From Savitreella phatthalungensis (Eukaryota), in contig AP039696.1 in the NCBI GenBank assembly GCA_051599415.1, positions 124,001-188,000 on the forward strand: DNA of 64,000 nt. Reading direction: 5' to 3'. The notes beneath the pieces are model-generated. The model was not told where the DNA came from. It saw only the letters and a list, made by a program, of their open reading frames with translations, and ran no database searches. The position numbers and the translations under genes are program-made. Of this stretch, positions 15,406-48,179 are shown in pieces. How positions within the stretch are numbered: the first letter of the stretch is position 1; each line of letters starts with the position of its first letter.

Positions 15406-15768
15406 CTAATTAGCTTTCCCACACCTGATACATGATTAAAAGGTGCACACCGATAACGTAGTTGGTGAAGCAGAGTCTCATTCAATGTGCTTTGGCATGC
15501 CAGTCCTGCTCATGTTCGACTCGTGCATGAGTCATGCGCCTCAAATCGATGCGTGCGGTAATGGACTCATTTAGCCCAGTCAGAAGGCGTCCGCAGCATG
15601 CTCTGAATGACTGTATGCGTCCAGAGATGCAACATCCGGCGACCATGTCTGCAGGCTGTGTCACATCATGTGCCCCATTGGCTATAGCGGTCGTATCGTC
15701 ATGCACGTCCTATAAATCCTTGTGCTGTCCCGGCGCAGAAACGACAAGAATCTCTCGAGCTCGCCAGA

Positions 15769-16122: not shown

Positions 16123-16774
16123 GCTAAGCGCGTAGACCTGCTTGATTGTCATTGTTCGTTAGATCCTGCGCCATACATGTCCATGTCATAAGCTTCATGT
16201 GCTCCCCTTTTACGTGCGTGATTGCACACATGGTTAGCCTTGGTCTCCTTGTTACAGCCGCCACCGCATTTGTGATGCGCAACACCAGCTAGGCCTACAG
16301 GTCAGCTTTATAGATGACGAAGCTGTCTGGGAACAGTGCACTAGACCGGGAGTGATTCATGCATTCAACCACGAGACCACACAGATGGTGAGCGTCAACC
16401 TGGTAGATCAGATAGACGGGTTAGGTCAGGGAGCTGTCGTACATTAATTGATCAGTGCGTCACCACCAGTATATTACCTTCTCAAGGCCAGTGCACTCGC
16501 CCCTTAGCCGCTCAGACCGCTGTCGATACAGATCGCTGTTAGTGGCACGAGAACAGCTGGATGCCGTAAGCTGAAGCAGTAGCACATAGATCAGCTGGTA
16601 GAGAACGTTAGACTTCCAGTCCCGCAGTACTGTCCGGACAGCTTCGTCGTGGTCAAACATCGGCCTAAGTCGGCATCGATCACTCCTGGTCATGCGAGGC
16701 CAGGACTCGTACCGATATAAATGTCATGCTAAGCATCCTCGCACAGATGTGGCCCAGCGGTCTTATGAGCAGCC

Positions 16775-17095
16775 ATGTGGATCACAGCCTATCTGCTTTG
16801 CGCGGCGAGTGCACATGCCTGGACGATCGTCAACGCAGTCGGCCATATCTACTGCAACGGCAGGATGATCTACGCAGAGGACGTGCGGACTTGGACGCCG
16901 ACAGCGTCGCTGTCATTCCTGAGCGATCATCCGATACCCGATCAGGCTGACACTCACCGGATCGGCCTGCAAGATCCACAGCACGAGTATGCCGTTGCTG
17001 TGAGACAGCGAGACAGGGCAGGTCACGTCGTAGTCACGTGGTCGAGCATGAGGCATAAAGTCGGTCGGGAATGGAAGATCTGTGGGCCTATCTAA
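16775..17095 (+). CDS. Small secreted 2-Cys protein, array member 5
   Basis: Signal peptide; WTIVN..IYCNGRMIYAEDV; HVVVTW; EWKIC; TATAAA at 16716. Confidence 0.8.
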   Translation: MWITAYLLCAASAHAWTIVNAVGHIYCNGRMIYAEDVRTWTPTASLSFLSDHPIPDQADTHRIGLQDPQHEYAVAVRQRDRAGHVVVTWSSMRHKVGREWKICGPI

Positions 17096-17555
17096 TTGCG
17101 AGCCCAGGACCGCCTGCCCAATTTGATCGTCCCAACAGGGTAGCCGTAGTGATCTCGAACGCTTGTGATGAGGCCTCGAATGATCAGCCTGACGGGCGTT
17201 ACGCCCGTCAATTCTATTGTCATACTCTTAGCTCGACAACAACGACGATTTCAGCACAAATGCTCAATTGAATGACTTTGCGACAAGTATAATCCGTACT
17301 CAATTTCATACGTTCCTTGAGCTGATCTAAGAGGTGTCCTTGACGCTCTGGAGCTCTCGCGCTTTAGGGGGAAATGCTGATTGAGGCCTGGAGACATGAC
17401 ACGTAACTGTGTCAGGATCATGTGAGGATTCCCATAGGTGTCCAAAAGCGCTAAGCCCCCTTCGACCTGCTTTGCACGGCATGAATAAATGTGCTAGACA
17501 TGAAGGGTATAAGACCTTCGTGTCCGCTGCTACGAAACCCATCCGACAATCCACG

Positions 17556-17948
17556 ATGCACGGGCTGACATTTCTTCTCTCGCTCATCGCAAGTCTGCTC
17601 GCTGGGCACGCATTCGCGTGGGTGGTTGACAATCCAGGCAACGGTACAGGTATCTTCTGCCTCGGCGGTGTGTGGAGTCCATCGAACGTCTCGTCAGAAG
17701 ATTGGCAACCAAAGGCCGACCTCAGCAAATTGCCCTTCCCTTTCCCGAGCAACACAAATCTCGAAATTCCAACAGATGTCCCGTACGGGCAGAACGGCAG
17801 AGAAGCTGCTTTCGTCTATCGCGACCGGAATATCGTCCTCCCTGTCGTTCAGCAAGTCAACACAAACCACATCTGGGTGAATTGGAATGACGCCTGGGGG
17901 ATCAGTTATCAAGGAGGCACTCGCCACTGGCAACGATGTCCGTTCTGA
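17556..17948 (+). CDS. Small secreted 2-Cys protein, array member 6
   Basis: ATG at 17556 with signal peptide MHGLTFLLSLIASLLAGHAFA; WVVDNP..IFC; IWVNWNDAW; HWQRC; TATAAG at 17508. Confidence 0.85.
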   Translation: MHGLTFLLSLIASLLAGHAFAWVVDNPGNGTGIFCLGGVWSPSNVSSEDWQPKADLSKLPFPFPSNTNLEIPTDVPYGQNGREAAFVYRDRNIVLPVVQQVNTNHIWVNWNDAWGISYQGGTRHWQRCPF

Positions 17949-18296
17949 GTGATTCTCCCGAGGTGGACTGCGTCCGATCGGATAGCACACTTCCGCGCGC
18001 ACGCCGGCAGCTCTGGTCAATCTGTTGCGACGTCCGAGCCGGGCACTTCCACGATGGTCTGAAATCGATACGACTGCATGCCAATCTCGATGCGGCGGGA
18101 TAACTCGTAGCCGCCAGACTCAATTTTTGACTTCATGTCTCACACGTCCGATCCGTATCATGAAGGTGTATGACAGCACGTTCCCGGCTCGGAACGCGCA
18201 CAGCCAACAGGTCATATGACGCTCCATTCTCGGCATATTTGCGTTCTTTCTATAAGAACTCATTGACCAGCTGACGACGACAACAGAAACGGGGCC

Positions 18297-18674
18297 ATGC
18301 GAACGGCACTCTCTATCCTGATTGCTCTCGGTCCATGCTTGTGATTCGCCACAGCAGCCTGGACGATTCAGAATCCGAATTCTGCTGGGCTCACTTGCGC
18401 AGGCAACCTGTATTCGACCGGTGTTATCGAAAACTCGTGGTCGCGCGTCTCCGATCTGAAGAGACTCCCACTACCATTCCCCGATGGGATCTCGTTGGTC
18501 TATCCAGCTGGTTCAGTCCGGACCAGCACTCAAATCGTTCTCCAGAACGCCGGCCAAACGACAATTGTTCCAGCAGTCGACGAGGGAGCATCACGGATCA
18601 TCATCAATTGGGCAGGTGGATATGGGCTTGCGTATGCGCAACTCAACGGAACAGTCATCTGGAGTCACTGCTAA
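18297..18674 (+). pseudogene. Array member 7, full-length but with in-frame TGA (18342-18344) in the signal peptide; absent from ORF track
   Basis: Manual translation MRTALSILIALGPCL*FATAAWTIQNPNSAGLTCAGNLYSTGVI...ASRIIINWAGGYG...IWSHC*; TATAAG at 18251. Confidence 0.85.
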
Positions 18675-18933
18675 ACCATAAAAGAGAATTCTAGCCATAT
18701 CCTGAGACCCGAAGTGCTTCATCGCTGATTATGATGCTTGACTTTCGACTTGCCATTTGAAAGCTGGCCCCCCAGAGTACGTGATACTTTCCCGAGGTCG
18801 CTTACTGCACATGCTAGCAATCAAGATGAATCATGCGTTGGCATTCAGCCACTTCGGCAAAGTATTACGTACTCAGAAGTGTCAATCCTCGTATTTGCTC
18901 ATAAGGCGTCCTCCTGCCTCGTGAATCTGTTCA

Positions 18934-19281
18934 ATGTTTCTGCTACAACTCCTTTTCATCACACTCTGTAGTGGTCTTCGCGTTGTCAATCCTGAAGGCG
19001 TTGCCAGCGTCTGCGGGATTTCCGTCAATTCAATCGTCGACGATCTTCGCGTGGCAAGTCGGCGTGATCTAAGTAAACCAGCAAGACCAGCAACACCTTC
19101 GTTCCCACGCACTACACCAAACAGTTGGCCAAGAGAAACAACCTTTAGGCGAGTGCTCCTTACAAATGGGGCTAATTCAATTGCTATACCAGCACTCCAA
19201 CGAACCAGCTCACAGGAAGTCTTCCTGAACTGGGGAGGCGCCCAAAGATTCGCTCGAAACACGTGGCGATCATGTGGATGA
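18934..19281 (+). CDS. Small secreted 2-Cys protein, array member 8 (Arg-rich)
   Basis: Signal peptide; LRVVNP..SVCG; TFRRVLL; IAIPAL; VFLNWGG; TWRSC. Confidence 0.8.
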   Translation: MFLLQLLFITLCSGLRVVNPEGVASVCGISVNSIVDDLRVASRRDLSKPARPATPSFPRTTPNSWPRETTFRRVLLTNGANSIAIPALQRTSSQEVFLNWGGAQRFARNTWRSCG

Positions 19282-19585
19282 GAACACAAGACTTATCCCC
19301 AATCAATGTCATCTGTCAGCAATCTACTCCCATCCGTACTGTCTCGATCCGGCCGATCTTGCTTCCGACTGACTGCAATGGGTAGACGATATGTACAGGT
19401 GACAATGCAATGTAAGGCACAAAGTGTCTGTCCAAGATCGTTTCAGCCCATAGGTCATGTGTAAGCAATCATCCCATTCATTCACCCCTCGACTTTAGTC
19501 TATAGATAGACCGTCGATGCTCTCCGGTATGATCAAGCCGAAAGAGACCAGTGTATCCAGCGTATCCATCGATCGAACCGTCAAG

Positions 19586-19933
19586 ATGTTTTTCATCCGG
19601 CTTGCTACTATCTTCGCGTCGTCCTTTGCCGCTGCCTATAAGGTGCACAACTCTGGCCAGGCCAACTGTGACGGCACTCCGGTCACTGCGGGATCCATTG
19701 GTGGCTTTAGTCGATTCAGTGGATCTTCGCCGGTGGACTTCAACTTCCCGGACGTCCCATCTGATCTGTCAGGCAAGTCTTTCACTCGTGCAATCCTCTC
19801 GGGATCTGGAGGCAACATACTCGCTCCAGTCCTGATCTTCTCGGCCACAAATGAGATCGAAGTTAACTGGGCTGGAATCTTTGTTCATCCGTCCGGCGAC
19901 GACAACAACCTTTGGCTCACCTGCAGCACTTAG
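19586..19933 (+). CDS. Small secreted 2-Cys protein, array member 9
   Basis: ATG at 19586; YKVHNSGQANC; GKSFTRAIL; ILAPVL; EVNWAGIFVH; NNLWLTC. Confidence 0.85.
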   Translation: MFFIRLATIFASSFAAAYKVHNSGQANCDGTPVTAGSIGGFSRFSGSSPVDFNFPDVPSDLSGKSFTRAILSGSGGNILAPVLIFSATNEIEVNWAGIFVHPSGDDNNLWLTCST

Positions 19934-20449
19934 TCTGCGGGTAGTCCCATAGGCATGCATGAATATTCCAGTCGGTAGCTAGTCAGCTTTGATTCTCGAG
20001 ACCATGACCCTTGGTATATGTGTCACGAGTGATATTTGATTGTCATGCAGTAAGCACACGTGCGCTATCTCCTCATCCAACGCATAGGTCAATGTATGTT
20101 TCGAGATATCTCGTGACGATGTTGAAGGTAGAAGTTCTGTGTCGAGCTTCTATTGTGATAGACCAGCTCTCGAATGCATATTGTTACTTGATGGCTTACA
20201 AATTGCACACGCGGAGCTGAGTGACTTTCTTCTTTCACTTCGATCCAGACAGACCGGAGCTCATAGGGTGCTGGACCAGGCATTACATTGAGCACACGTA
20301 CTAAACATGATTACACCACGCGGATCGGCGAGTCTGGAGAATCCACTTGTCACATAGATGATGTGATTGTGTCTCAATCCAGGGAACGCCGTATAAGAAC
20401 GTCTTCCTCGAATCATTTGACGTCTTCAGCTGTAGTAAACGCTAGAGCC

Positions 20450-20797
20450 ATGCTGTCTTTCCTCGCAATTCTCGCATCACCCGCCTATGCATACACCGTC
20501 ATCAACCTTTCTCACGGCTCCTGCGGGCTCACAAGCTTCAGTGACGCCGACATCGCTCACTGGCACCCGCTCAGCAAGGCGACTTCGATCTATCCAGCCC
20601 TGCCGTCGTTCTCGTTCCCGGCCTTGCCTACAGACTGGCAAGGCAAATCATTCACAAGAGCTGTCCTCGCAGACGATCTTCAGCAAGTCCTCGCACCTGT
20701 TCTCATCCAGACAGGTACCGACCAGGTCGTCGTCAACTGGCAAGGTATCTGGGGACTCTTCGCTCCGGACAACAATCTGAAATGGTCTCTCTGCTAG
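20450..20797 (+). CDS. Small secreted 2-Cys protein, array member 10
   Basis: ATG at 20450; YTVIN..SCGLTSFSDADI; WQGKSFTRAVL; VLAPVL; VVVNWQGIW; KWSLC-stop; TATAAG at 20392. Confidence 0.87.
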   Translation: MLSFLAILASPAYAYTVINLSHGSCGLTSFSDADIAHWHPLSKATSIYPALPSFSFPALPTDWQGKSFTRAVLADDLQQVLAPVLIQTGTDQVVVNWQGIWGLFAPDNNLKWSLC

Positions 20798-21339
20798 ATA
20801 CCCTCGACCCCAGTATCGGATAGTACCATGACCTGCCTAGTCAAGCCGAAAACCAATGTGACCACTTCAGCGACGTGGCTCGTCGCAATGACCCATACGT
20901 ACTGTGCTGCACGCTGTCAGACACCGTAGGCGCAGTGAATGTAGAGTTCGTAGTTAAGCCCCAGAAATATCGTGAGCTCAATTGCGTGCACGCATTGCGC
21001 GTACGGCGTGCAAGACAATCTACGGTCCGGATCGAGTGATGTAGAGCATTCATAGTCAATCAGCTGTCAATAGAAACATCCTTACTCTCCCCTGGGTAGA
21101 ATGTCGAAGCATTCTCAAAGATAGTGTTTCGCCGCAATGACATATGATTCGGCGACGCGGTTGTACGGGACATACCTCTGCTTCACCGACCTCAATCCGG
21201 CCCATATTGTGGTTGCGACACGCTTCCAGATTGCTCGCTTGTGTTGGGATTACCTTTCAGCGTCCGAGCCTATACAATTCCGCTTTGCCGCCGCTCACAC
21301 AGCCAGTCATTCGAACAAACCTTCTAATTGTCACTCAGT

Positions 21340-21684
21340 ATGATTTTCAACTTGGTTCTCCTCGCTGCCGCTGTCCAAGCGACTTATACCGCCGTCAACT
21401 CTGGCCGGGGCAACTGTGGATATACTAGCGTTGACGCAGATGCCATCGCTGACTGGCACGTGCTCGACAAAGCCGCTGCACACTCTCCCTCCTTGCCACA
21501 GGTCACATATCCGAACGTGCCAGTGGAATGGAAGGGCAAACGATTTACGCGCTCGATCCTTGCAGATTACGCTGAGCAAGTTCTTGCGCCCGTCCTCCTG
21601 CAGACAAGCACCAACAAAGTCGTTGTCAACTGGGAAGGTGTCTGGGAGAAGTACAACGACGGTTGGCTGCAGTGCAAAGAATAA
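21340..21684 (+). CDS. Small secreted 2-Cys protein, array member 11
   Basis: ATG at 21340; YTAVNSGRGNCG; WKGKRFTRSIL; VLAPVL; VVVNWEGVW; GWLQC. Confidence 0.87.
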   Translation: MIFNLVLLAAAVQATYTAVNSGRGNCGYTSVDADAIADWHVLDKAAAHSPSLPQVTYPNVPVEWKGKRFTRSILADYAEQVLAPVLLQTSTNKVVVNWEGVWEKYNDGWLQCKE

Positions 21685-21898
21685 AAGTATCGAACCTTCC
21701 ACATAGACAAGTTTCAATATGATTCAGTCGCACTGCTCTAGACAGAAAAGCTTTGTCACATCAGCCATGATCCAGCACATGATGTTAAGGTCGACGTCCT
21801 ATAAGGTAAGCGGTTTTGTCGGTGTCTCGCGTGTTTCATCTTGTCAATCAAGATCAGAGTCGTCATCCTTACTGCCGCTATAAACTGCACTCACCATA

Positions 21899-22234
21899 AT
21901 GTTCCTCCGTGCAAGCTATATTTCTGCGGCTCACGCGACCTAGACTGTCGAGAACTCCGGCAACGGCGACTGCGAACACATCATTGTCGATCCAGAAAGT
22001 GTCGCTGGCTGGCACGTGCTTAGAGGCGGACCATCGGCCTCTTCGATCCTGCCGCAAGTCACGTTCCCGGAGCTGCCAGCGATTTGCGAGAGCAAGTCGT
22101 GTACACGCTCTATTCTAACAGATCCCGGTTCACAGATCGTGGTGCTCGTCCTGATACAGACAAACACCGACACGATTTTGGTCAACTGGCAAGGGGTATG
22201 GGAAATCTACAACGACGCTCGGATGCGCTGCTGA
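21899..22234 (+). pseudogene. Array member 12, in-frame TAG (21941-21943) at the first mature residue; weak signal peptide
   Basis: MFLRASYISAAHAT*TVENSGNGDCEHIIVDPESVAGWHVL...TRSIL...ILVNWQGVWEIYNDARMRC*; closely parallels member 11. Confidence 0.85.
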
Positions 22235-22435
22235 CACATCCGGACTCCATATTTACGAATCCGTGGGCTGTTGCGCAAGGAATGTGCTATGACCATGATC
22301 ATCGTCCCTCAGCGAAGCATTCTTTCAGATGACCACTGTGTGACCTTCTAGAGAGCCAGCGTATAAGTTAGCGCTCGCATGTCAAGGCAAGCTGTTCAAG
22401 AGCTTCGAACGTAGGTAGAACAGGCGATCAAGGTA

Positions 22436-27836: not shown

Positions 27837-30800
27837 TTAGTAGGTTGTTGTGGTGCGGTCTTGGCCAGCTTGTGCGCCAGAGCCGAGGATGCCAGTCCGT
27901 GCAGCGGCCGAGTTGGCCTGAGCGGCTTGGTCAACGCCGCCTCGGGGACCAGCAAGGTCGGATGCCTTTTCTTCGGCGTTGCCGAGAGCCTTAGACTCTT
28001 GAGCAGGGGAAGAAGAGCCAGCTGCGCCGCTGCCGCCTCGCTTCTTGAACTGGAACTTCCACACACGGAAGAGGTAGAACATGATGACGGTGGCGGCGGC
28101 GTTGAAGGCCGCGTAGGCGAGTACCAGCACGAAATCTCGCCACTTGTGCGAGTACTTCATGCTCACAGTCTCGAGGAATTCCGAGCCGTTGCTGAATCGG
28201 CAGTAGTAGCACGTTCCTCCCACTGCCTGTGATGTCGCGTCTGTCAGGTAGCCGAAGCCGCCGGCTGCAAAGTAGTTGGTCATGTATTGCGCACACGTCT
28301 GAGCGGGCGGTGCAGAGAAGATACTGACTTCGACGTCCGAACAGACGATCGGGTTTCCGGCGGTCACGTTCACATAGAGTCCTTCGATTAGGTAAGTGAA
28401 TGGCGTCAAGTGGTACATCCACTGCCAGAAGCTGACGAGCAGGGATGGTGGCTGAAGCACACCGTTGAACAGGATGACGAAGGTGAAGAGCAGGGTTGAG
28501 ACAATCGCAGCTGTTGCTGCGTTCGGCACAAAGGAAGCTGCGAGCTGACCGAATGTGCTGAACCAAAGCGTGTATGCCATCAGCATGAGCCACATGTATC
28601 CACCCTGAGAAGCCAATGACTGGATCGCGTGATTCTGCCAGAAACCGATGGCGTAGTACCAGGGGAAGAAGAACAGCGTGATGCCAAACATGTTGTAAGG
28701 TAGCTCGACAATGATGCTCGAAACCACCCACACGTACCACGAATACATCTTGCTCTTCGATTCGCGCACCTCGAAGAGGTCACGGTTCTCGATGAACTTC
28801 GGCTGAATCTGTGACATGAGCGTGTTGGAAAGCACAGCCGCAAGGAAGATTGAGAAGAGCTTGTTCTGCTGCGCTTGGACGTTCTGGCCGGATTTGTAGA
28901 ATGTGAATCCAATGAAGAGGCCGGCAACGAGACAGAGTAGGAACTTGGACGAGATATAGGTCGGAGAGCGGTAGTACTGCTGGAAAAGGCGGTGCTGGAC
29001 CAGTCGGTATTGTGACCAGATCGGCATGGCGTACGTGTGCTTTGCGTCCGCCGCATCCTCAGCAGACTGGTCAGTGTGACGCCGGCGTCCTTCGGTGACG
29101 AGTCGGTCGGCCTCGTGAGAGACCGTCTGGAACTCCTCAGAATCGCGCCAGATCTCGAACCAGTCTTTGTCTGTTGAAGCCGTAGCACCAGCACCGATGG
29201 CGTCTAGAATGTACTCTGCCGGATTTTCAGATTCCGTGCAGTGACCTGCTCCGTTGCGCTCGAAGTAATCTGTGAGAGTGTGCGAGTTTTTGCCGATATC
29301 GCCAAAGTATACAGTCTTTCCACCTTTTTGCAGGAGGAGAAGGCGGTCGAATTGTTCAAAGAGGACGGCAGAGGGCTGGTGAATTGTGCAGAGGATAGCC
29401 TGCCCAGCATTGGCGAGCTTGCGCATGAAGAGCACGATGGACCAGGCCGACTGAGAGTCGAGACCAGATGTCGGCTCGTCCAGGAAGAGCAGAAGCTTTG
29501 GCTTGGCAGCAAGCTCGACACCGATCGTCAGACGCTTGCGCTGCTCAACGTTCAGTCCGACTCCCGGCACACCGACGACGGCCTCGGCATATGGCTCCAT
29601 CTCGAGCAGACGGATCACTTCCTCGACGTACTCGTACTTCTCCTTCTTGCTGACTGTCTTTGGCTGACGAAGCATGGCCGAGAATTGCAGAGCTTCACGT
29701 ACGGTACACTCGCCCATGTGAACGTCCTGCTGCTGAACGTAACCGGTCTTTCGCTGGAATGAGGAGTCGAGAGGATGGCCATTGACGAGCATTTGACCGG
29801 TGACGACGCCGGTGTCAACCCGCTGAGCGAGGACGTTGAGCAAAGTAGTCTTGCCGGCACCTGATTCTCCCATCAGAGCCGTGAGTGTACCTGGCTTGAC
29901 CCAGCCTTGAACGTCGTTGAGCAGCTTGCGCTTCTCGCCTTTGATGTCGATCACGTAGTCGAGGTTCTTCCATGAGAAAATATCTTCCGACTTTGCCAGC
30001 GCATTCATCGCGTCATCCTGGCTGGAAGTCTCCTCCGCTCCTGCGGGAGCGCCTTCTGGCACGTTGGTGGGCTGGTGCTCGAGATCACTTGCCTTCTTTC
30101 CAGACTCGAGTGCATCGGTAATAGTCTTAGGTGCGTGTCCACGACGGAACAGGATGACATCGCCCTTCTCAGCCACGGGAGCGATGAACTCACTCGCGAC
30201 AACGTTGACGAAGAGGAAGAAAAGCCAGAAGGCGATGACGATACCGAGATTGCGCCAGAGGTGGCTGTAGTGGTAATCGTACGTGGCAGCCAGATAGTCG
30301 AGACCGTTGACAGTGTTAGAACCAGGCTGGGCACCAGTGACAGCACAAACCTGGTAAGCACTGTCAGTATAGCCAGGACCAGAAGGAACGAGCGATGCAC
30401 AAGGTGTGGTCTCCATGTTGTTGAATTGGTTGACCATGAGCGCCTCGAAACTGTAAGCGATCGGATTGATGTATTTGATCCACCTGAACCACCAACCGAC
30501 CTGCTGTGTCGGAATCACATAGCCAGTGTAGATGACGAGCGCGAGGACACCGATACCAGCAAGTGTCAATGCTTGGTCGACAGTCTTGGTGATGGTGGCA
30601 AGCGCTCTGAAGAAGCTTGTCATGCACATAGTGATGAGGAAGGTGAAGAGGTAGAAGATGAAAAACTGGCTTGCGCTCAAAGCTAGACCGGTCATGAAGT
30701 AGAGGATGCAGTTGAAGACGGTGAGAGTAGCGAGCTTAATCGGTACATCGACAAGCAACTGAGCGAGAGCATCAGCGGACGGGTGGTAGAATGCGTAGCT

Positions 30801-31761: not shown

Positions 31762-33438
31762 CCGTGGAAGGTTGCGGTAGGTTAGCACATGGTCTATGTG
31801 GGTTACTGGCTGTTTGAGCTTGGTATGCTAACCGAGAATTCGATTCAAGCTGTATATTCACTCAGCTGAGTCTGAATGAGGTGACCGCATCACTCCGGTC
31901 CCGCTGCTTGACTAAAGATTCAATTGATGATGACTTGATTCAGATTCAGATTTTAGATTTGCCCCTCGGAGGTTAAACTTGGTAAGTTTGACTGGATAGA
32001 TTTCTCGGCGATGATCATCTGCCGAAAGACCGAGTTATGAATGTTTAATTGTCAGAATCTAGAAATCCACATGTAATTCGTAACGAATCAAATCAGTATC
32101 CGTGAATCGACAGAGAGCCAAGAGATCCATTCGTCTATGGCCTGTTGGCAAGGGTTCTCCCGAAGCCACCTCCGCACAAGTCTGATAACTATGGATGAAT
32201 GGAGCATCTGAACAAGACAGCAATTCGTGACAAATCATGCTAAGCCTCTTTGGTCGAAATTCTGATTCTCTCGCGGCTCAGGTAATAAAATAATCTCTAT
32301 AGCACGTTTGTTTGATGAAGTCGGGAATTTAGGTAACAGATTCAGTGGTATGATGTCACCTTCCGAGAATCTGTAGCTGGAAAGGTTCAATCTGGATTTC
32401 AAGACTTCTAGAGTCGTTTGCTTGGCGGAAAGCAGATAGAATACTTCGAATCAGGTTCAATTCTGAATTGCTGTTTCACAGGTTAGAACGTGCTCTGAGA
32501 GACGCTTTCGGTAGTGGAGAGCAGAGGAGGATCTGATCAAGCACAGATCTGCAATTCAAATCCATTGATTGATACACATTTCTGCGTCTTCTTCCTTCTT
32601 TCTGCATCGAAGCCATCTCGGAGCTTCAAATCCACCGACCCGGCGAATTGTCTCTGGGTCATTCACCCCTTGCAGATCGAGCGATATGGAAAATTCCCGC
32701 TGCAAGGCAAATCAAGGCGAAAGAGCAAAGGATCATTGTCATCATCAACAGCTGAAGCAATTGCAGCAGTAAAGCATCACATAGCTGAGTAGAAGCGCAA
32801 CAAATGCTAAGCAAATGGCACAAACAGTCAGCAGCTAAGATCTCCTGTCGGCAGAGACCTCTTCCTTTACCTCAACCAAGTTAGTCAATCAATTGTTGGC
32901 TCATTCAGTCAAGGTTGTCACAGTCGGTCAAATGAATCCCGTATATGTTCTCTCATACACTCCATAGCCTCGCTTGACCTTTCTTGTCATCCTTGCTCAG
33001 AACTCGCAAGTATCTTGACGCTGACGCCAACAACCGACCAACGACGCCGCCTCTCCTTTGTCAGGATCGCTTGATTCTTTGTCAGTAGCACAGCTGCGAG
33101 AACACTCAAACAGGCTACCTTGCAATCTCATACGCGCTCACATACCTACCACGCACACACACCTACATTCCCAAACGGGCACTTGCTTATCCTGTGATCC
33201 AATTGCGCTCACGCACTGCCACGCCCACCACGGATCATCTTTTGCTCCGACACCCGCGCAACCATACATTGCGCTACACAATAAAACCACTTTGATCGCG
33301 CGTTCACCTATACTTTCGTCGTCTTTGGGCTACAACTCCCATCCCGCCAAGTCATCCTTCGCACGTTCAACATTTAATTGCGACTGCCTATCCCATCTTA
33401 TATCCTAGCGTTCTTTCTACATCTGCTTCTCTACAGCA

Positions 33439-35046
33439 ATGTCGGTCTCCGCTAACGATCGGGCGTACCAGCCGCAATTACATGCGCAACAACAGCAACA
33501 GGAAGGTACTATCAATGTGCTTGGACCGGTAATTCGCACAGGTAGCTCCGAAGCGACTGCTTCACGCAAGGACTCTTCCCCTGGAAGCGAGTCCGGAAAC
33601 AACACGATCGTTGACGAGGGAGGAGTCATGAATCACCCGCAATCTCTTGACGACAATCAGCTTGACGAACTCAGAAGGACACTTTCGAAGCGCTCTGTCG
33701 GTGGCGATCCGCTCGACCTTGAGCACAATTTCTCTCTCGAACGCTATGTGCGCGAGCTCCTGCACCGCCAGGATGCTCAGCAGATTGGCCGTCGTGCGGC
33801 TGGTGTGTGCTGGAAGAATGTTTCAACTTTCGGTGTCGGCGCTGGCCTGTCGTACCAGGCAAATATCTCAGATCCCTTGTTTGCACCTTTCCGGATCAAG
33901 GAGATCATCAACTCGTCTCTTCACCCTCCTAAGAAGACCATCATCTCCAACTTCAACGGTGTTGTTCGCGACGGCGAGATGCTTCTCGTGCTCGGCAAGC
34001 CCGGCGCAGGTTGCTCGACCCTGCTGAAGTCGCTCGCAGGTGAGCACAACGGATACACCGGCGTGGAAGGTGATATCCACTACCATGGTATTTCACAGAA
34101 GACGATGCTTGGCCAATACCGTGGTGAAATCGTCTACAACGGTGAGGTGGACGTGCACTTCCCTCACCTTAACGTCTCGCAGACGCTCCAATTCGCCGCT
34201 GAGGCTCGTCTCCCGCATGCACGTGTGGACCGTATTCCACGGAAGGATTACACCGCCAGAGTGCGTGATGTGCTCGCCACAACCTTCGGCCTCCGTCACA
34301 CCTATAACACTAAGGTCGGAAATGACTACGTCCGCGGCGTCTCTGGAGGAGAGAGGAAGCGTGTCTCGATTGCAGAGACACTTGCTTCACGTGCGCAGAT
34401 CCAGTTCTGGGACAACTCGACACGTGGTCTGGATGCGTCGACCGCACTCGAGTATGCAAAGGCGCTGCGTGTGTCGACCAATCTGGCGCGTTCGACCTGC
34501 GTCGTCTGCATCTATCAGGCAGGCGAGCAGCTGTACGAGGTCTTTGACAAGGTTACTGTCGTCTACTCTGGCAAACAGATCTACTTTGGTCCTACAGAGT
34601 CAGCCAAGCAGTACTTTGTCGACATGGGCTTCGACTGTCCCAAACGTCAAACGACCGCCGACTTCCTCACTGCCATCACAGACCCGAAGGCTCGGTTCGC
34701 TCGCGAAGGCTTTGCTGACCAGGTTCCAAGGACACCGGAGGAATTCGAGGAGCGGTGGCGCAACTCGTCTGACTACCAAGACATGATGCGAGAAATTGAA
34801 GCATACAACAACGAGTTTGCAAACGGAGAAACCGAGAAGACATATCGCGAGACTCTCGACGCAGAGAAGGCAAAGCGTGCAGGCAAAAAGGGTCCGTACG
34901 TCATCTCCTACCCCATGCAACTCCGTCTGTGCTCCAAGCGCGCATGGCAGCGTATCACAGGAGATCCAGTGATGATTGGATCGTCAACGATCGGTGCCAT
35001 CGTCCAAGCTCTGATTGTCGGCTCTGTCTTCTGGAAGTTTGTCTAG
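33439..35046 (+). CDS. PDR/ABCG transporter N-terminal part (NBD1 + TMS1)
   Basis: PDR-type degenerate Walker A GKPGAGCST, VSGGERKRVS, WDNSTRGLD, RQTTADFLT; ends right after first TM helix ALIVGSVFWKFV-stop. Confidence 0.92.
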   Translation: MSVSANDRAYQPQLHAQQQQQEGTINVLGPVIRTGSSEATASRKDSSPGSESGNNTIVDEGGVMNHPQSLDDNQLDELRRTLSKRSVGGDPLDLEHNFSLERYVRELLHRQDAQQIGRRAAGVCWKNVSTFGVGAGLSYQANISDPLFAPFRIKEIINSSLHPPKKTIISNFNGVVRDGEMLLVLGKPGAGCSTLLKSLAGEHNGYTGVEGDIHYHGISQKTMLGQYRGEIVYNGEVDVHFPHLNVSQTLQFAAEARLPHARVDRIPRKDYTARVRDVLATTFGLRHTYNTKVGNDYVRGVSGGERKRVSIAETLASRAQIQFWDNSTRGLDASTALEYAKALRVSTNLARSTCVVCIYQAGEQLYEVFDKVTVVYSGKQIYFGPTESAKQYFVDMGFDCPKRQTTADFLTAITDPKARFAREGFADQVPRTPEEFEERWRNSSDYQDMMREIEAYNNEFANGETEKTYRETLDAEKAKRAGKKGPYVISYPMQLRLCSKRAWQRITGDPVMIGSSTIGAIVQALIVGSVFWKFV

Positions 35047-36003
35047 TCCACCTGCAACCTCCGATCCCGGGTGCCCGACGAGCAGACGATCCGACCGTCA
35101 GACAACCACTATTTATGACCATGATTCTTGCATCCTCTACCCTCTCAGCGGCTTCTATAGATATCAGCGAGCAAGCGATTCTGCCATCTCAGCTTGTGCC
35201 CAGATCGATCACCAGTAATGATTCACATCAATGAAGAAAAGCCCGAGATCAGTTAATCACTTGCTTGTCGTGAACCTCATCCTCTGCAGTTCAATCTTAA
35301 CTAGTGACTCGACATCTCCGTTGATTTGCCAAGCATACGAACCGCTGAGGAATACCCATACATGTCTACCGATCGAATTAACCTGTTCTGATTAGACATG
35401 GCACATTCTACGAGCTGTTGTTGCCTGGAATTTAAGGTGTGGATATCGTCGAAAGGGAAATCCAATCTCCGTGAAGTCAAACGCACAAGAACAACATCCT
35501 TCAGTTGCGGCTCCCCGCCGCTCAGGGTCTTCGGGTCTCCCCTCTCTCATCCTTGTCTATGGCATCTGTGTCCTCAAGTCCTGACCCTAGCTCCTTCAGG
35601 TTTATGACTAAAAGTATTAAGCTTCAGCGGCTATTCTCGCACTCACATGCCAAGCAAGGTGGAAGCGCCCTGACCGATCACTGATTTAAAGGGTGTACTC
35701 TTGACAGCTAAGTCAACGTCACCAAACTCCTCCTGAAGGCGTAAGCCTAGCCTGTTAAACTATACCTTCTCGGAAGCTCATCGGCCTCGCCTGCATTACC
35801 TGGAAGTAGAATTGCCTAACGTTGCTGGATCGCTTCAAACCTCTCCAAGGGTGACCTAACAATTTGACCGCGCGGACTAATACTTAGGTCGTCTGCGTCG
35901 TCACCACTTTCTTTTGGAATCCTGTCAATCACCTGACATCATCTATTTTGTTCTTCATTGAAGTCAGGAAGAGCTCAGACAGAGTGATAAAGCTTCGTTT
36001 GTC

Positions 36004-38502
36004 ATGCGTCTCGAACTCATGCCAGCGACGCCTGCGCAGGTACGTCAATCATGGCGTCTAAACATGGACTCATTCGGTCGCGCGTATACTCCAGAGGACT
36101 ACACCTCCAGAGAGCTCGCACAAATCGAGACCTTCCCTCCAGAAACCGTCGCGCACCTTCATCCCGGCGGAGTGCCTTCGTCTCCTGCCCGGAAATCGCC
36201 ATCAGCGAATGAAAGCGCAGGTCAAGGCGTTCCGTCAGGTCCACGGCGCACCGCTACTGGCGATGTCGAAGTCGGCCTACCTATGCACGGCGGTATGACT
36301 GTCTGGGTCCTGGTCGATGTTGATGAAGCTGTAGCGGAGGGTCAAGAACGCACGGTCCTGGCATCATGCGAGACCCTCCATCGACCTGCAGTGATCGCAC
36401 GACCTGTCGTCGGCGCGCGCAAGGTCAAACTTCATCGCTCTGCCGCACAGGCTGGCGAAGAAGGTGAATCGACGAGTGTTGGCGATCAGCTTGACAAATC
36501 AGCAGCTCAGGCAGGCGTGACCGTTATCCCAGGCGACGCTTCACCCTCCTTCGACCGCGCACACAAAGCAGCCTCCCTCCTGTTCGGCGATAGCCAGCCG
36601 TCGAGTGCAAGGCCCTCAGGCGAATTCTCTCGGCATCGTACACATGAGACGACGGAAGATGCAACGAAACCTGCCGTACCGACCGCGGTCCCATCGTCGC
36701 CATTAGCTTCTCCGCCCCCAGCGCCACCGGCTGACTCGCCACCGGCCGTCCCTCACGTCTTCAAGACCCATGCAGAGGACGATGGTGAGCCCAATCATCC
36801 AGCTGCAAAACCACTCGAACGTCAAATGACAGGCGAAAGGAGGCTATCGCGCCAGACCACCGGTGAGCGACGGCAGCTGAAGGCCGAAGCTGCCGCTGCG
36901 AAAAGGCAAGCTCGCGACCAGGCCCGAGCTGATCGACGTCGCGCCGTCGCTCGATTCTTCGGCGTCAAGACATCATCCTCTCCAGCGCCAGAAGACAAGA
37001 AGCCGCAATCGCAGCAGAAGCCACATTCCACTGCTGCGCGTCCATCTCTACCTCCCTCACAGCCAACCACCGTCGGCAAGAAAGTACCCCTCAACAGACC
37101 AGCATCACCGCATCTCCGCGCAAAGCCAGACATCCTACCTACGCCGCCAGACTCTGCAATCTCTCGATCAGGAAGCTTCAGTCTCTCGCAGAAGCCATCG
37201 TCGGAGCTCGCAGCTGCCGTATTCAAGAAGGATGCAGAACTACCACCGACACCGAGTGGTAGAGGTGCTAACTCTGGCGTATACGGGGATGAAGATGATG
37301 ATTGGGAAGATGAGGATCTTGGTGAGTTGGAGGGTTACACTGTCGAGCGTGGTGCAGGAATTGGCGTGGCGAGTGTCTATGTCGCACCAGAGTACCGCAA
37401 CAAGGGTCTGGCGTCGATCATGATGGAACTCCTGGCAGACGTCATCACCTACCAAGGCCATGCACAGATGCGTCCTGAGGACGAAATTGACTCCGCAACA
37501 CAGGTCCAGTCCACCGCATCGCAGGGAACACCATCACAAACACCAGACGGCCACGTCTCAGACACTGTCCTCGCCTCAGTTCTCTGGTCAGACGTCGGTC
37601 CGAGCTTCTACGCGAAGTGCGGTGGTTGGGAGTGCGGAGCGTCCCGGAGCTTCATCATGCGGTTTGAGGAAGGCTGGAGCGACTGGCGGAATCCGGAGGT
37701 ATCGCGACATGCGCGCAAGGTGGCTTCAGATCTGCAGCGCGGAGGCGGCCAATTCTTAGCAGGCTGGCAAGCAGACGAGCTCGCAGACGCGCTCGGCGAC
37801 TACATGCTCTCGACCGTGCAGGCGCGTGCGAGGGAGCTATCCCGACTAGGTCGTTCTGCCACAGACGATCTCCGCACCGTCGTGGCATTCCTCCCATCAG
37901 CGCAAGTCTCGCGGTGGCACAGGTCACGCGCCGTCTGGACAGCAATCCACCTAGGCGTCCAACCTCTCCGACTCCACAACATCCCACACGTTCCAGATCA
38001 CCTCGACCATCTAGCGCCGATCGAAGCAGACTCGCTCGGCCACACATGGGGTTACAAGCTTGCAGACGACTGCTACATCCTCTGGACGCACAACTACAGC
38101 AAGACGAAAGCAGCAGACTCGACCCTGTACATCCTCGGTCTCCGTCTGCCTGATTCTCCAGAGGCTTGTCTCGACAAGTCGCTCGCACACGACCTTGACG
38201 AGGCCCTCGTCAGACTTGTCGGTGCCGCTGTTGTCGAGGCACGCCGGACCGGATGCGCACGCGTCGAGATCTGGGATCCAAAACCTCACCAGGTCAGAAT
38301 CCTCTCGGCCTACATCTCCGTCCAGGGCGCAGACGACCTCGGTCTCGACCGCCTCAAGTTCACACTCGAGTCACCAAGATCACACTCACTCGGCTGCATC
38401 CTACTTCCACACCTCGAGCGCCGCTTCAGGAGAAGTCTCACAGAAGAAGACGAGGTCGAGTCAATCGAATGGATTGGTCAAGCCCGCTACGCCTGGTGCT
38501 GA
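36004..38502 (+). CDS. Lyc1-like GNAT lysine acetyltransferase with long low-complexity insertions
   Basis: VLASCETL; GVASVYVAPEYRNKGLASIMM (acetyl-CoA motif); SVLWSDVGPSFYAKCG; C-terminal EWI...RYAWC. Confidence 0.7.
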   Translation: MRLELMPATPAQVRQSWRLNMDSFGRAYTPEDYTSRELAQIETFPPETVAHLHPGGVPSSPARKSPSANESAGQGVPSGPRRTATGDVEVGLPMHGGMTVWVLVDVDEAVAEGQERTVLASCETLHRPAVIARPVVGARKVKLHRSAAQAGEEGESTSVGDQLDKSAAQAGVTVIPGDASPSFDRAHKAASLLFGDSQPSSARPSGEFSRHRTHETTEDATKPAVPTAVPSSPLASPPPAPPADSPPAVPHVFKTHAEDDGEPNHPAAKPLERQMTGERRLSRQTTGERRQLKAEAAAAKRQARDQARADRRRAVARFFGVKTSSSPAPEDKKPQSQQKPHSTAARPSLPPSQPTTVGKKVPLNRPASPHLRAKPDILPTPPDSAISRSGSFSLSQKPSSELAAAVFKKDAELPPTPSGRGANSGVYGDEDDDWEDEDLGELEGYTVERGAGIGVASVYVAPEYRNKGLASIMMELLADVITYQGHAQMRPEDEIDSATQVQSTASQGTPSQTPDGHVSDTVLASVLWSDVGPSFYAKCGGWECGASRSFIMRFEEGWSDWRNPEVSRHARKVASDLQRGGGQFLAGWQADELADALGDYMLSTVQARARELSRLGRSATDDLRTVVAFLPSAQVSRWHRSRAVWTAIHLGVQPLRLHNIPHVPDHLDHLAPIEADSLGHTWGYKLADDCYILWTHNYSKTKAADSTLYILGLRLPDSPEACLDKSLAHDLDEALVRLVGAAVVEARRTGCARVEIWDPKPHQVRILSAYISVQGADDLGLDRLKFTLESPRSHSLGCILLPHLERRFRRSLTEEDEVESIEWIGQARYAWC

Positions 38503-38705
38503 ATCCAGATCACCTAGCTCACCCTAGCCATAGTAATCTCCATCATGTAGACTGTCCCATTTCGAGTATTCTGCATTCCGGAGATATGGATAGGACGAAT
38601 GACTGCTGTGCTGCGCCGGCTCCGCATATTATTGTGTACGTACTCACCTGCACAGTATACGTCAGACGCATTAAGCGGGTACTACTCCTGAGAACACAGC
38701 TCTCG

Positions 38706-39689
38706 ATGAAGGTCCGGATACAGGTCAAGACCGGTGGATCCGCCGCGCGTCACATTCTCGAGCTTCCCGATGATGAGGGCGGCGGCGACGGCGCGCTTCT
38801 GTACGCTGCGATCATCGAGAAGACATCTCTGGACCCAGGCAGCTTCGCCGTTCTCTCAGGCTACCCGCCTCGTCCGATCGATCTCCTCTCCGCCACCCCG
38901 CTCAAAGACCTAGGCATCACTAACAATGCATCCATCATCGTCGACGTCTCACACGCCCACAAACCAAAGCAACAAGCCACCGCAACCTCCTCCTTCGCGC
39001 GCAAACCCAATCCGACGAGCACAAACACCAGCGCGAACGCAAACGCTGATGCAGATGTCCCATCCGTCTCCGTAGGTACTCGTGGCACCGTCACCCTGCG
39101 TGTGATGGAGGACGACAACAGCTGCCTGTTTCGAGCGATTGGGTTTGTGTGTGTTGGGGGCGGGGTGGACACTGGTGGTGCGCTCCGGGATGTGTGCTGT
39201 GACGCGATCGAGCGTGATCCCGAGACGTGGAACGACGGTGTGCTTGGGATGCGGCGGAGTACGTATGTGGCGAAGCTCCAACGGCCCGACACCTGGGGAG
39301 GCGAGATCGAGATGCAGCTGCTGGCAACCCACTTCGGTGTCACCCTGGCCGCCGTCGACGTTCGCTCACAGCACATCTACAGGTACAACCCGGATGCCGC
39401 ATCACGGAAAACAGTGTACGTCCTATACTCCGGCATACACTACGACGCTATCGCCATGTCGACCCACCCCGGCGCCTACACCGACCTCACACAATTCGAT
39501 ACGGGCGATATCGCAGTCGAGAATGCCGTCATCGAGCTCGCGAGAAAGCTAGGCCAGAAGGGTTACTACACAGACACGGCTACCTTCACACTCAAGTGTA
39601 ATGACTGTGGGACGAAGCTGCAGGGGGAAAAGGCAGCGCAGGCACACGCAGCCGCCACAGGACACTACAACTTTGGCGAGCACAAGTAG
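38706..39689 (+). CDS. OTU1: Ubiquitin thioesterase Otu1
   Basis: UBX-like GYPPRPI; DDNSCLF (Cys), WGGEIE, YSGIHYD (His); C-terminal C2H2 CNDC..HA..TGH. Confidence 0.92.
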   Translation: MKVRIQVKTGGSAARHILELPDDEGGGDGALLYAAIIEKTSLDPGSFAVLSGYPPRPIDLLSATPLKDLGITNNASIIVDVSHAHKPKQQATATSSFARKPNPTSTNTSANANADADVPSVSVGTRGTVTLRVMEDDNSCLFRAIGFVCVGGGVDTGGALRDVCCDAIERDPETWNDGVLGMRRSTYVAKLQRPDTWGGEIEMQLLATHFGVTLAAVDVRSQHIYRYNPDAASRKTVYVLYSGIHYDAIAMSTHPGAYTDLTQFDTGDIAVENAVIELARKLGQKGYYTDTATFTLKCNDCGTKLQGEKAAQAHAAATGHYNFGEHK

Positions 39690-42010: not shown

Positions 42011-42463
42011 ATGTCTGACAACGGTGAACACATTGATGAGACTCCCGTCGAGGAGACGCAGGTCGAGGTCTCTGCCGAAGGCGCTGCTCCTAAGGGACAG
42101 ATGTCGATCGAGGACGCTCTGAAGGAGGTGCTCAAGCGCTCGCTCGTCAATGACGGCCTTGCACGTGGTCTCAAGGAGGCCACCAAGGCACTCGACCGTC
42201 GTCAGGCTCACCTGTGTGTGCTGTGCGAGTCGTGCGACGAGGAGGCCTACACGAAGCTGATTGAGGCTCTCTGCGCTGAGCACAAGATCAACCTGATCAA
42301 GGTCGCAGACGCAAAGAAGCTCGGAGAGATGGCAGGACTCTGCGTCCTCGACCGTGAGGGCAACCCGAGAAAGGTCGTCGGATGCTCCTGCGTCGTCGTC
42401 AAGGACTTTGGAGAGGACTCCGAGGCTCTCCACGTTCTCACCGAGTTCTTCCAGAGCCAGTAA
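42011..42463 (+). CDS. RPS12: 40S ribosomal protein eS12, intronless
   Basis: [43 protein letters not shown]. Confidence 0.96.
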
Positions 42464-46631: not shown

Positions 46632-48179
46632 ATGGGTCAGGATGTCGACGTCGATGTCGATATTGACGTGGTACAGAGCAACCGGGAATCATGGCTTAGA
46701 AGGCTACGTGGAAACCCGGCGTTCATCGTCCACTGCGTCGGTTTCGCCATCTTCACTGACCTCTTCCTGTACGGGATCATCGTGCCTGTGCTGCCGTATG
46801 CGCTGACGCCGCGATTCAACATCCCAGAGGATCAGGTTCAGATCAAGGTGTCCGGCTTGCTGGCAGCGTATGCGGCAGGTCTGTTCACGGCGTGCCCCGT
46901 GGTTGGCTGGTGGTCGGATCGAGTGAGTGCACGTCGGACGCCGTTGCTGGCAGGGTTGGTCGTGCTGGCTGCAACGACCTTGATGCTCATGCTTGCACGG
47001 GTGTTCTGGCTCCTGGTGGTCGCGAGACTGCTCCAGGGGATGTCTGCCGCGGTGGTGTGGACGGTCGGGATGGCGCTGCTGGGTGACACTGTCGGGACAC
47101 ACGCCATTGGCGCAGCCATGGGTGTTGTATCAATCTACCTCGGCTGCGGCATTTTCGCGGGACCCATCCTAGGCGGCATCCTCTACCGCGCAGGTGGATA
47201 CTACCCGCCCTACGCACTCGCACTCGCAGTCCTCGCCATAGACATCGTCTGGCGTCTAGCCATCATTGAGCGGCCCCGTCATCGTCACCAAACCCCAACG
47301 TCCTCCACTTCCACAGGTCACCCGGCTACAGATAATGGCACGCCTCTTTGGACATCACGTTTGCCAGCCATCATCCGCATCCTCAGTTTCCCGCGTGTCC
47401 TCGCCGGATGTTGGCTTGGCTTTATCTGCGCAGCAGTGTTGAGCTGCTTTGACTCCGTGCTGCCGCTTCATCTGGAAGAGATCTTCGGATTCGATTCGCT
47501 GGCGGCTGGACTCGTTTTCGGGGCGTTGGTACTGCCGTCATTTGTGGTGTCGCCGCTGGCAGGATGGTGGCTTGATCGGCGCGGCACGAAGCTGATCACC
47601 TTGGTCGGGTGCACACTCCAGGTACCATTCCTGATCTTGCTACGGCTGCCGACGAGCGCACGACCGAGGACACCGCAGGTCGTCCTCATGTGCGCACTTC
47701 TCGCACTTAACGGCGTCGCCGCAGCCCTAGCGCTTCCAGCATCACTCGCAGAAATTACACTCTGCGTAACAGAGGCAGAAGACCGTCACCCGGGCTCGTT
47801 CGGCGCACGAGGCGCCCTCGCCTCAGGCTACGCCCTCTACAATGTCATGTATGCCGTCGGCAGTTTCGTCGGCCCGCTCGTCGCGGGCGCTGTCAGGGAC
47901 GCGGCCGGATGGAAGACGATGGCCTGGGTCATGGCTCTCCTAGAAGCTATTGGTCTGCCCATCATTGTCCTATACCTCGGTGGACCATTGCGTGGAGGCC
48001 GCAAAGTCTGGCTCGGCCCAGTGGACAACAAACCAGCCGCGGTACCAGCGACACACGCCAACGACCAGATCGCTCCATACCCGACCAGCACTCATGTGCA
48101 AGAGCAGGAGCAGCAGCATGAGCATGAAACAATCGAAAAATCAAAGCCGGCACCCGTCGCAGTCGCCTCAGCCATCTAG
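46632..48179 (+). CDS. MFS transporter (vesicular amine transporter-like)
   Basis: AIFTDLFLYGIIVPVLP; GWWSDRVSARR; ARLLQGMSAAVVW; about 12 TM helices. Confidence 0.85.
   Translation: MGQDVDVDVDIDVVQSNRESWLRRLRGNPAFIVHCVGFAIFTDLFLYGIIVPVLPYALTPRFNIPEDQVQIKVSGLLAAYAAGLFTACPVVGWWSDRVSARRTPLLAGLVVLAATTLMLMLARVFWLLVVARLLQGMSAAVVWTVGMALLGDTVGTHAIGAAMGVVSIYLGCGIFAGPILGGILYRAGGYYPPYALALAVLAIDIVWRLAIIERPRHRHQTPTSSTSTGHPATDNGTPLWTSRLPAIIRILSFPRVLAGCWLGFICAAVLSCFDSVLPLHLEEIFGFDSLAAGLVFGALVLPSFVVSPLAGWWLDRRGTKLITLVGCTLQVPFLILLRLPTSARPRTPQVVLMCALLALNGVAAALALPASLAEITLCVTEAEDRHPGSFGARGALASGYALYNVMYAVGSFVGPLVAGAVRDAAGWKTMAWVMALLEAIGLPIIVLYLGGPLRGGRKVWLGPVDNKPAAVPATHANDQIAPYPTSTHVQEQEQQHEHETIEKSKPAPVAVASAI

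Follow-up and report, generated by a model that had tools for sequence, protein, structure and literature searches.

Antifungals and plant toxins leave the cell mainly through PDR (pleiotropic drug resistance) pumps. Full-size PDR pumps are single polypeptides of approximately 1500 amino acids, and all fungal members known to us consist of one long chain. Their two ATP sites are asymmetric: the first nucleotide-binding domain (NBD1) has a degenerate Walker A, Walker B and H-loop together with a canonical signature, and the second (NBD2) shows the reverse. Half-size members of the ABCG group within the ATP-binding cassette (ABC) proteins, such as human ABCG2 (655 amino acids), consist of an NBD followed by a transmembrane domain (TMD) and are assembled from more than one chain. 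Here we describe a PDR gene that is divided between two open reading frames (ORFs) in a stretch of 64,000 nucleotides (hereafter the window) from Savitreella phatthalungensis (contig AP039696.1 of assembly GCA_051599415.1, positions 124,001 to 188,000). The two ORFs, designated N-chain and C-chain, have the same domain order as the full-size pumps Bfr1 of Schizosaccharomyces pombe, Pdr5 and Snq2 of Saccharomyces cerevisiae and Cdr1 of Candida albicans. In contrast to these, the gene is interrupted after the first transmembrane helix (TM1), its parts lie on opposite strands, and each part has its own start and stop codon. The original prediction, made from the sequence of the window, was that of a functional gene fission. 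The reading to which we incline, at chances close to but not quite even, is that both pieces are expressed and form a working two-chain pump.

Two open reading frames make up one transporter

The N-chain ORF (535 amino acids, standard code) ends with ...GSVFWK followed by FV and the stop codon TAG, and the C-chain ORF (1042 amino acids) starts with MSTGQVASS and then reads LPVSQTTAGYFSFGG. No stop or frameshift was found inside the 1577 codons of both ORFs, and upstream of its ATG the frame of the C-chain is open for just 16 further codons. Coordinates of these and all other features are given in Table 1. Based on Pfam, the N-chain contains ABC_trans_N, ABC_tran and then positions 2–41 of the 211 positions of the ABC2_membrane profile; the C-chain begins with positions 36–211 of this profile, followed by PDR_CDR, ABC_tran and a second ABC2_membrane domain. 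Both family-specific domains scored above their cut-offs, with 43.5 bits for PF14510 (ABC_trans_N) in the N-chain and 127.7 bits for PF06422 (PDR_CDR) in the C-chain. When the two ORFs are read in order, the reverse topology NBD1-TMD1-NBD2-TMD2 is present; the single polypeptide of full-size PDR/ABCG proteins is not, the four domains being spread over two ORFs of opposite strands.

The translations contain GKPGAGCST, FWDNSTRGLD and VSGGERKR in NBD1, with a Cys within Walker A and an Asn following Walker B, and GESGAGKTT, LFLDEPTSGLD, LNVEQRKR and CTIHQPS in NBD2. These are stretches that we take to be the respective motifs, and with this assignment both ORFs fit the ATP-site asymmetry of PDR pumps. 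The original prediction had both ORFs free of frameshifts, equipped with their own ATG and stop codon and in possession of their NBD motifs, all of which is seen in the translations; it also described a divergent orientation with a gap of about 2.5 kb, and 2473 nt were indeed counted between the two ATGs (30966–33438). No convincing ORF was found in this gap, where the longest stop-to-stop frame is 127 amino acids.

The best named matches of the C-chain were bfr1+ of Protomyces lactucae-debilis (66% identity), a Saitoella protein (61%) and Bfr1 proteins of Schizosaccharomyces (54–55%; S. pombe Bfr1, 55% over the C-chain), and four unnamed full-length proteins matched at 68–71% identity. Matches to named Bfr1 proteins reached E=0, the best solved relatives were Cdr1 and Pdr5, and in trees both parts fall within the Taphrinomycotina Bfr1 group. 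Judged by domain content and homology, the N-chain and C-chain together are one full-size Bfr1/Pdr5-type PDR (ABCG) transporter. By these matches, the host is a fungus of the Taphrinomycotina, without a close sequenced relative in the collections searched.

The gene is cut at the outer end of the first transmembrane helix

In the alignment to ten full-length homologs, homology runs to K533 of the N-chain and resumes at L10 of the C-chain. The foreign residues are limited to the two-residue tail FV and the nine-residue head MSTGQVASS, and at most one codon was lost or duplicated. The two parts had been described as complementary with essentially nothing lost or doubled, and in this alignment they meet codon-exactly; the junctions, read from the sequence, lie between 30938 and 30939 and between 35037 and 35038. 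The N-chain aligns to C. albicans Cdr1 (9iuk_A) as far as residue 535 and ends three residues past TM1. In the available text of PMC11974388, Cdr1 residues L529 and V532 are described as lying in transmembrane helix 1 (TMH1) and G521 at its centre. This places the cut where TM1 ends on the outside and extracellular loop 1 begins, in agreement with the loop named in the original prediction.

Read contigs support the split

Two sequencing runs of one sample (X1 and X2), possibly the source of the assembly, were compared with the window by means of their Logan contigs, which were built independently of the submitters' assembler. The contigs of X1 span 25000–31606 and 31768–39000 with 0 differences, and those of X2 span 25386–31682 and 32927–38465. 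Both junctions are bridged by contigs of both runs with no mismatch, and no competing joint or loose end was reported. The split is real in the DNA, because these independently built contigs cross both junctions; assembler error is not its cause, and misassembly at the two junctions, which the original prediction named as a thing to exclude, is now very unlikely. The contigs break solely at a pentanucleotide microsatellite (31683–31767), which is located within the inverted segment described below, near the upstream end of the ATG-free stretch that precedes the C-chain. As no contig runs over it, that the two halves lie side by side is known from the submitted assembly. In addition, contigs of X1 and X2 from other places in the genome that match the conserved stretches 29449–29551, 30206–30249 and 30636–30667 at less than 90% likeness point to at least two further, paralogous PDR loci.

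The contig depths of X2 over 14 kb were 9.55, 484, 10.7, 703 and 1274, and those of X1 were 43–54. One X2 contig takes in the C-chain ORF and its leader to 31682 and another begins at 32927, 18 nt before the ATG-free stretch of the N-chain; between the two, just one of the contigs listed was found, at depth 10.7. This pattern resembles that of an RNA-derived library, but the kind of library is not on record, there is one depth per contig and gaps in coverage are no proof, and we treat it as a lead that is counted on neither side.

A run from another study with another organism label (X3) yielded low-depth contigs, 92–99.6% identical to the window and scattered in 27806–36203; a closely related strain therefore exists in public data. 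Sequence of X3 is present in the bin 30604–31070, and among the contigs listed none covers a junction. The match of a run with the same organism label (X4) was limited to 83 conserved bases, and an exact 26-nt scan beside the junction in JGI metagenome contigs gave 0 matches.

Probable origin by a single inversion

The intact protein P0003 is the nearest match of both pieces, at nearly the same identity (Table 1), and each is sister to P0003 in its own separate tree. Because they share this nearest and sister protein, the pieces are derived from one gene and not from two truncated paralogs. The opposite strands, the codon-exact complementarity and the length of the gap all fit a single 4.1-kb inversion (30939–35037), with one break in the gene and the other approximately 2.5 kb upstream of its ATG, and this is for us the event that caused the split, as judged from the layout. 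It follows from such an inversion that the DNA now in front of the C-chain would be the far end of the old upstream region, reversed. The original prediction assumed a bidirectional promoter for the two divergent genes; what lies upstream of the C-chain, however, would be that reversed far end, and not a promoter known to be shared.

The next gene (36004) encodes a LYC1-like GNAT protein, and before the inversion the leader stretch of the C-chain pointed toward it. No inverted repeat or microhomology beyond chance was found at the breakpoints (scores of 16 and 18; shuffled sequences averaged 14.4 and 18.1 and reached at most 23 and 24). A mobile element at the breakpoints was also considered and rejected: the 15 further ORFs of at least 220 amino acids and the three neighbours were ordinary cellular genes, and no transposase was seen among them.

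Both pieces are conserved

Near-invariant columns were defined by at least 95% agreement among 53 intact homologs, and these homologs were left out singly as a control. The N-chain has changed 1 of 76 such columns and the C-chain 4 of 228, two of the latter within the foreign head, compared with 0–5 columns in the N part and 0–12 in the C part of the intact homologs (n=53). The terminal branches of the split gene were 0.230 for the N part and 0.220 for the C part, compared with 0.219 and 0.310 for P0003. By these measures, the pieces are not decaying and their constraint is within the range of intact homologs. Neither the lesions of a unitary pseudogene nor relaxed constraint were seen (0 stops or frameshifts, normal columns and branches), and a pseudogene younger than about 0.5% divergence would be compatible with this.

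The latter value is derived from the computed fraction of random substitutions in both ORFs that create a stop, 3.7%. If neutral, both ORFs stay open at 5% probability only to about 0.5% divergence, assuming 0.1 indels per substitution. Between X3 and the window, 3 of 512 coding sites differ (28289–28534 and 34681–34946) and 69 of 1423 intergenic sites (four contigs), i.e. 0.6% and 4.8%, respectively (Fisher p=9e-7). Taken together with the neutral bound, this means that either the inversion is several times younger than the separation from X3, or the pieces are under selection.

Leader-like DNA precedes both start codons

The ATG-free stretch of 825 nt that ends exactly at the ATG of the C-chain is a candidate 5' leader. 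In dinucleotide-preserving shuffles it contained 7.6 ATGs on average, and none of 1000 shuffles reached zero. The five other orderings of A, T and G occur in it 6–12 times each, and its plus strand holds 16 ATGs. It is the longest ATG-free run on the minus strand of the window and the second longest overall. The ATG of the N-chain is also preceded by an ATG-free stretch, presumably its native leader, and GC skew changes its sign near 32000, within the 1.15 kb that separate the two. There are seven ATG-free runs of at least 494 nt in the window, five of which end exactly at the ATG of a long ORF. The long ATG-free stretches that reach the start codons of several genes in the window suggest that this fungus has unusually long 5' leaders free of upstream AUGs.

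A putative intron-like element is located within the candidate leader of the C-chain; its pattern has 17 matches across both strands of the window (128 kb). Compared with X3, the 825-nt stretch differs at 8 of 327 sites, against 61 of 1096 in other intergenic DNA (p=0.019), and none of the seven differences listed creates an ATG.

In the layout before the inversion, the 825-nt stretch would have run into a frame of 11 codons and, beyond it, into DNA with ATGs. An origin of the stretch as an inverted copy of the N-chain leader was rejected (score of 24, with a shuffle mean of 22.3 and a maximum of 29). The same applies to its being the start of a gene that continues at 35038, where the in-frame reading stops after two codons; the other frames are open for about 60 codons from 35038 onward, and no match was sought for them. 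A junction with the GNAT gene at 36004 was equally discarded, as there is no GTRNGT donor in 35038–36010 and the GNAT frame is open for 10 codons upstream. With no donor or frame to link it, a leader captured ready-made from another protein gene therefore has no visible source; what remains as alternatives is a clean-up of the stretch subsequent to the split, or coincidence.

The N-tail of the C-chain carries no charge

To function, the C-chain has to bring its first 24 residues to the cell exterior with no signal peptide. According to the positive-inside rule, loss of positive charge favours the translocation of an N-tail, and the 24-residue tail of the C-chain has 0 charged residues. Of the 82 homologs in which the motif was found (119 searched), 79 have a Lys or Arg before the GG where TM2 begins, as do 51 of the 53 aligned homologs; the C-chain has Phe there, which is one of two deviations among 48 columns with conserved Lys/Arg. 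The uncharged tail may be regarded as a second, weaker sign of a live C-chain.

A two-chain pump or a young null allele

We favour the two-chain pump because of the leader, the uncharged tail, the full conservation of both pieces, the low coding divergence from X3 and the position of the cut, which falls in a loop and not in a helix or NBD. The functional fission, and with it the transcription, translation, insertion, assembly and transport of a two-chain pump, is what we infer from these findings, none of which is decisive. The inversion would have cut the PDR gene between TM1 and TM2, on the outer face of the membrane, so that its 5' part pointed away from its 3' part. The N-chain would have kept its native promoter and its ATG-free leader of 494 nt, and would be inserted after translation by its C-terminal helix, similarly to tail-anchored proteins. 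Transcription of the C-chain would start from the reversed far end of the old upstream region and translation at the first AUG after a long AUG-free leader. Its short uncharged N-tail would then pass through the membrane, TM2 serving as N-out signal anchor, and both chains would pack as they do in the one-piece protein, through contacts of TM1 with the TMD and through the interface of NBD1 with intracellular loop 1 (ICL1). A helical bundle of NBD, elbow helix and ICL1 is described for ABCG2 in the available part of PMC7756363.

A more specific version, in which the fission is old and was refined by selection, appears doubtful to us. AUGs would have been purged from the C-chain leader (which perhaps has an intron of its own in the 5' untranslated region), the new N-tail would have lost all charge, enabling it to pass the membrane with no signal peptide, TM1 would have become tail-anchored, and both chains would be co-regulated from one 1.15-kb region.

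It should be noted that a number of points weigh against a working pump. The split was seen in one genome, with no relative of more than 71% protein identity in the collections searched. Close homologs are all single chains, and those of more than 50% identity that span the site are all uninterrupted. Short protein fragments of relatives that span the junction gave 30 matches, the best at 62% identity and none close, and none of 36 other short matches (up to 600 amino acids) ends at the cut site. Neither an ABC protein, natural or engineered, that is cut inside a TMD nor a natural split PDR/ABC gene was found in the literature searched, subscription journals being outside its scope. A disruptive inversion that has only just happened would leave intact ORFs and normal conservation equally well, and with at least two paralogous PDR loci the loss of the split one could be tolerated. 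The leader argument is post hoc, part of the evidence for the pump having been noticed after the fact: two of the seven long ATG-free runs are not leaders and lie antisense to the low-complexity part of Med15 and to RPS12, and the stretch before the C-chain formerly faced the GNAT gene, and may thus have been inherited as it is. The change from Arg/Lys to Phe may be older than the split, as Saitoella has Leu at this position. Finally, an NBD1-TM1 chain that is tail-anchored and a C-chain that is N-out are no more than plausible.

Several of these points are also what would be expected of a very young loss-of-function allele, which we consider a substantial possibility, although with less than even confidence. 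In this case, the inversion broke one of several PDR genes too recently for stops or frameshifts to appear; the N-chain would perhaps still be produced from its own promoter, as a stub of no use or of slight harm, the C-chain would be silent or unproductive, and its leader-like stretch would come from the old intergenic region. An inversion with one break in a coding region, which separates a gene into parts, is a mutation of the ordinary kind, and pseudogenes are a frequent result of fission by recombination (PMC2557144, in its available part). The paralogous loci, the occurrence of the split in this genome alone and the single-chain homologs are in line with such an allele, and intact ORFs with normal branches and conserved columns are what a recent event leaves. 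Furthermore, the chance is about 1 in 4 for an in-frame ATG before a stop upstream and about 13% for a stop within three codons. On the other hand, the allele must be younger than about 0.5% neutral divergence, and the intergenic DNA of the sole related strain seen is about 4.8% diverged. A young null allele also leaves to coincidence the 825-nt ATG-free stretch, the intron-like element, the lower divergence of the stretch, and the loss of Lys/Arg with the uncharged tail. Had the leader come from another recently broken gene, the remainder of that gene should be open from 35038, where the frame closes after two codons with no donor to the next gene. If the allele is a fresh null, the locus records the ordinary loss, at strain level, of one among several paralogous pumps, and serves chiefly as a warning that intact complementary ORFs do not prove functional fission.

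Less probable explanations

That a single piece is functional seems improbable. It would be either the C-chain, working without NBD1 and TM1, or the N-chain, persisting as a membrane-tethered degenerate ATP-binding protein, while the other piece decays. The N-chain does retain its native promoter and leader, the leader-like region before the C-chain suggests that at least the latter is translated, and the first nucleotide site is degenerate in PDR pumps, in line with the Cys and Asn seen in NBD1 of the N-chain. However, both pieces are equally conserved and equally slow-evolving, and the active ATP site with NBD2 is incomplete without the canonical signature of NBD1. Moreover, TMH1 is part of the proposed substrate entry gate in Cdr1, according to the available text of PMC11974388.

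An artefact, whether from misassembly, from a chimeric molecule in the library or from a rearrangement carried by a minority of the culture, is very improbable. The sample behind X1 and X2, if it was the source of the assembly, is not independent of it, and the microsatellite remains unbridged. Against this, both junctions lie within contigs that a different assembler built from two runs, the junctions carry no repeat by which an assembler might be misled, and no intact second copy at 80% likeness or more was found in X1, where six records were placed, two of them short paralog matches.

Trans-splicing at an old intron, by which the two transcripts would be joined into one mRNA, is hardly credible: although, with a shift of one base, the N-chain end reads as a GT..GT hexamer, AG precedes the homology of the C-chain and the spliced product would carry the homologs' commonest residue at that position, there is no branch-site motif before the AG, the four closest homologs are uninterrupted ORFs of 1483–1544 amino acids, the fact that none of the 36 short homolog fragments ends at the cut speaks against a conserved intron there, the two exons lie on opposite strands, and we know of no mRNA trans-splicing in fungi.

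Other features of the window

Table 1. Features of the split PDR locus and ATG-free runs in the window (positions in the window; strand given as a dot where it does not apply)
Feature	Position	Strand	Length or basis
C-chain ORF: TM2-TM6 of TMD1 with PDR_CDR extracellular domain, NBD2, TMD2	27837..30965	-	ORF list, Pfam, 70.0% to P0003
C-chain new head MSTGQVASS: ATG and 8 codons, no counterpart in homologs	30939..30965	-	alignment
Inferred inverted segment: 1.6 kb of the gene (5' part) with 2.5 kb of DNA formerly upstream of it	30939..35037	.	4099 nt; orientation, codon-exact complementarity
ATG-free stretch ending exactly at the C-chain ATG, candidate 5' leader	30966..31790	-	825 nt; shuffles, X3 comparison
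Putative intron-like element: GTAAGC donor, CTGAT branch, AG; ends 45 nt before the C-chain ATG	31011..31059	-	49 nt; pattern scan
Pentanucleotide microsatellite (plus-strand units TGCTA, TACTG, TGCTG)	31684..31763	.	repeat family D1
Central 1.15 kb with ATGs on both strands, candidate shared promoter region	31791..32944	.	between the two ATG-free stretches
ATG-free stretch before the N-chain ATG, presumably native leader	32945..33438	+	494 nt; 1/1000 dinucleotide shuffles reached 0 ATG
N-chain ORF: ABC_trans_N, NBD1, connecting region, TM1 at the extreme C-terminus	33439..35046	+	ORF list, Pfam, 70.1% to P0003, Cdr1 residues 86-535
N-chain new tail: two foreign codons (FV) and TAG	35038..35046	+	alignment
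ATG-free run before the ATG at 36004 (LYC1-like GNAT)	35647-36003	+	357 nt
ATG-free run before Med15	2105-3249	+	1145 nt
ATG-free run before mitochondrial carrier	56284-56890	-	607 nt
ATG-free run before GT8 gene	59455-59958	-	504 nt

Downstream of the N-chain, the LYC1-like GNAT ORF (36004–38502) overlaps an ORF with an OTU1 C-terminal zinc finger (38253–39689, plus strand) by 250 nt in different frames; the models of these two genes probably need introns, and the X2 contigs listed have a hole at 38466–38664. A ribosomal protein S12-like ORF (42011–42463, plus strand) ends at an intron-like GT..CTRAY..AG element (42460) and probably has a second exon. The region 10177–23162, 13 kb in length, is without an ATG-started ORF of at least 220 amino acids on either strand and may contain intron-rich genes or non-coding DNA. 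Other transport genes of the window are single uninterrupted ORFs, namely an MFS_1 transporter (46632–48179, plus strand), a ferric reductase (52575–54128, minus strand) and a YVC1/TRPY1-like channel (60303–62063, minus strand).

Comparison with known systems

If functional, the split gene represents a new architectural variant of the PDR family; otherwise, it is an ordinary inversion allele. With fissions and pseudogenes caused by inversions in fungi it shares the mechanism of one break in coding sequence; here, in contrast, the break falls in an extracellular loop exactly to the codon, and neither part lacks a start, a stop or leader-like DNA upstream. A two-chain pump, if true, would mean that one ordinary inversion can turn one gene into two co-regulated genes in a single step. 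It would also mean that the ABCG fold can assemble from pieces cut inside the transmembrane domain and that TM1 can be inserted after translation, and it would offer a ready-made split system for structural study of the TM1/TM11 entry gate and of the coupling between NBD1 and the TMD.

Severed STE6, CFTR, P-glycoprotein and MRP, as well as split lacY and band 3, regain function when their parts are co-expressed, according to the available part of PMC2229491. As described there, the former four were severed between domains and are all laboratory constructs, and the cuts in lacY and band 3 were made in loops; the split PDR gene would be a natural cut within a TMD. With half-size ABCG proteins it shares the order of NBD and TMD and would share the assembly from several chains, and the N-chain aligns to residues 56–414 of ABCG2. 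Half-transporters, however, are cut between whole NBD-TMD modules, whereas the cut in the split gene falls within TMD1 and leaves NBD1-TM1 and TM2-6-NBD2-TMD2, a departure from the usual half-transporter boundary that the original prediction had recognised. If both chains indeed form one pump, this would be the first natural ABC transporter with a transmembrane domain built from the helices of two genes.

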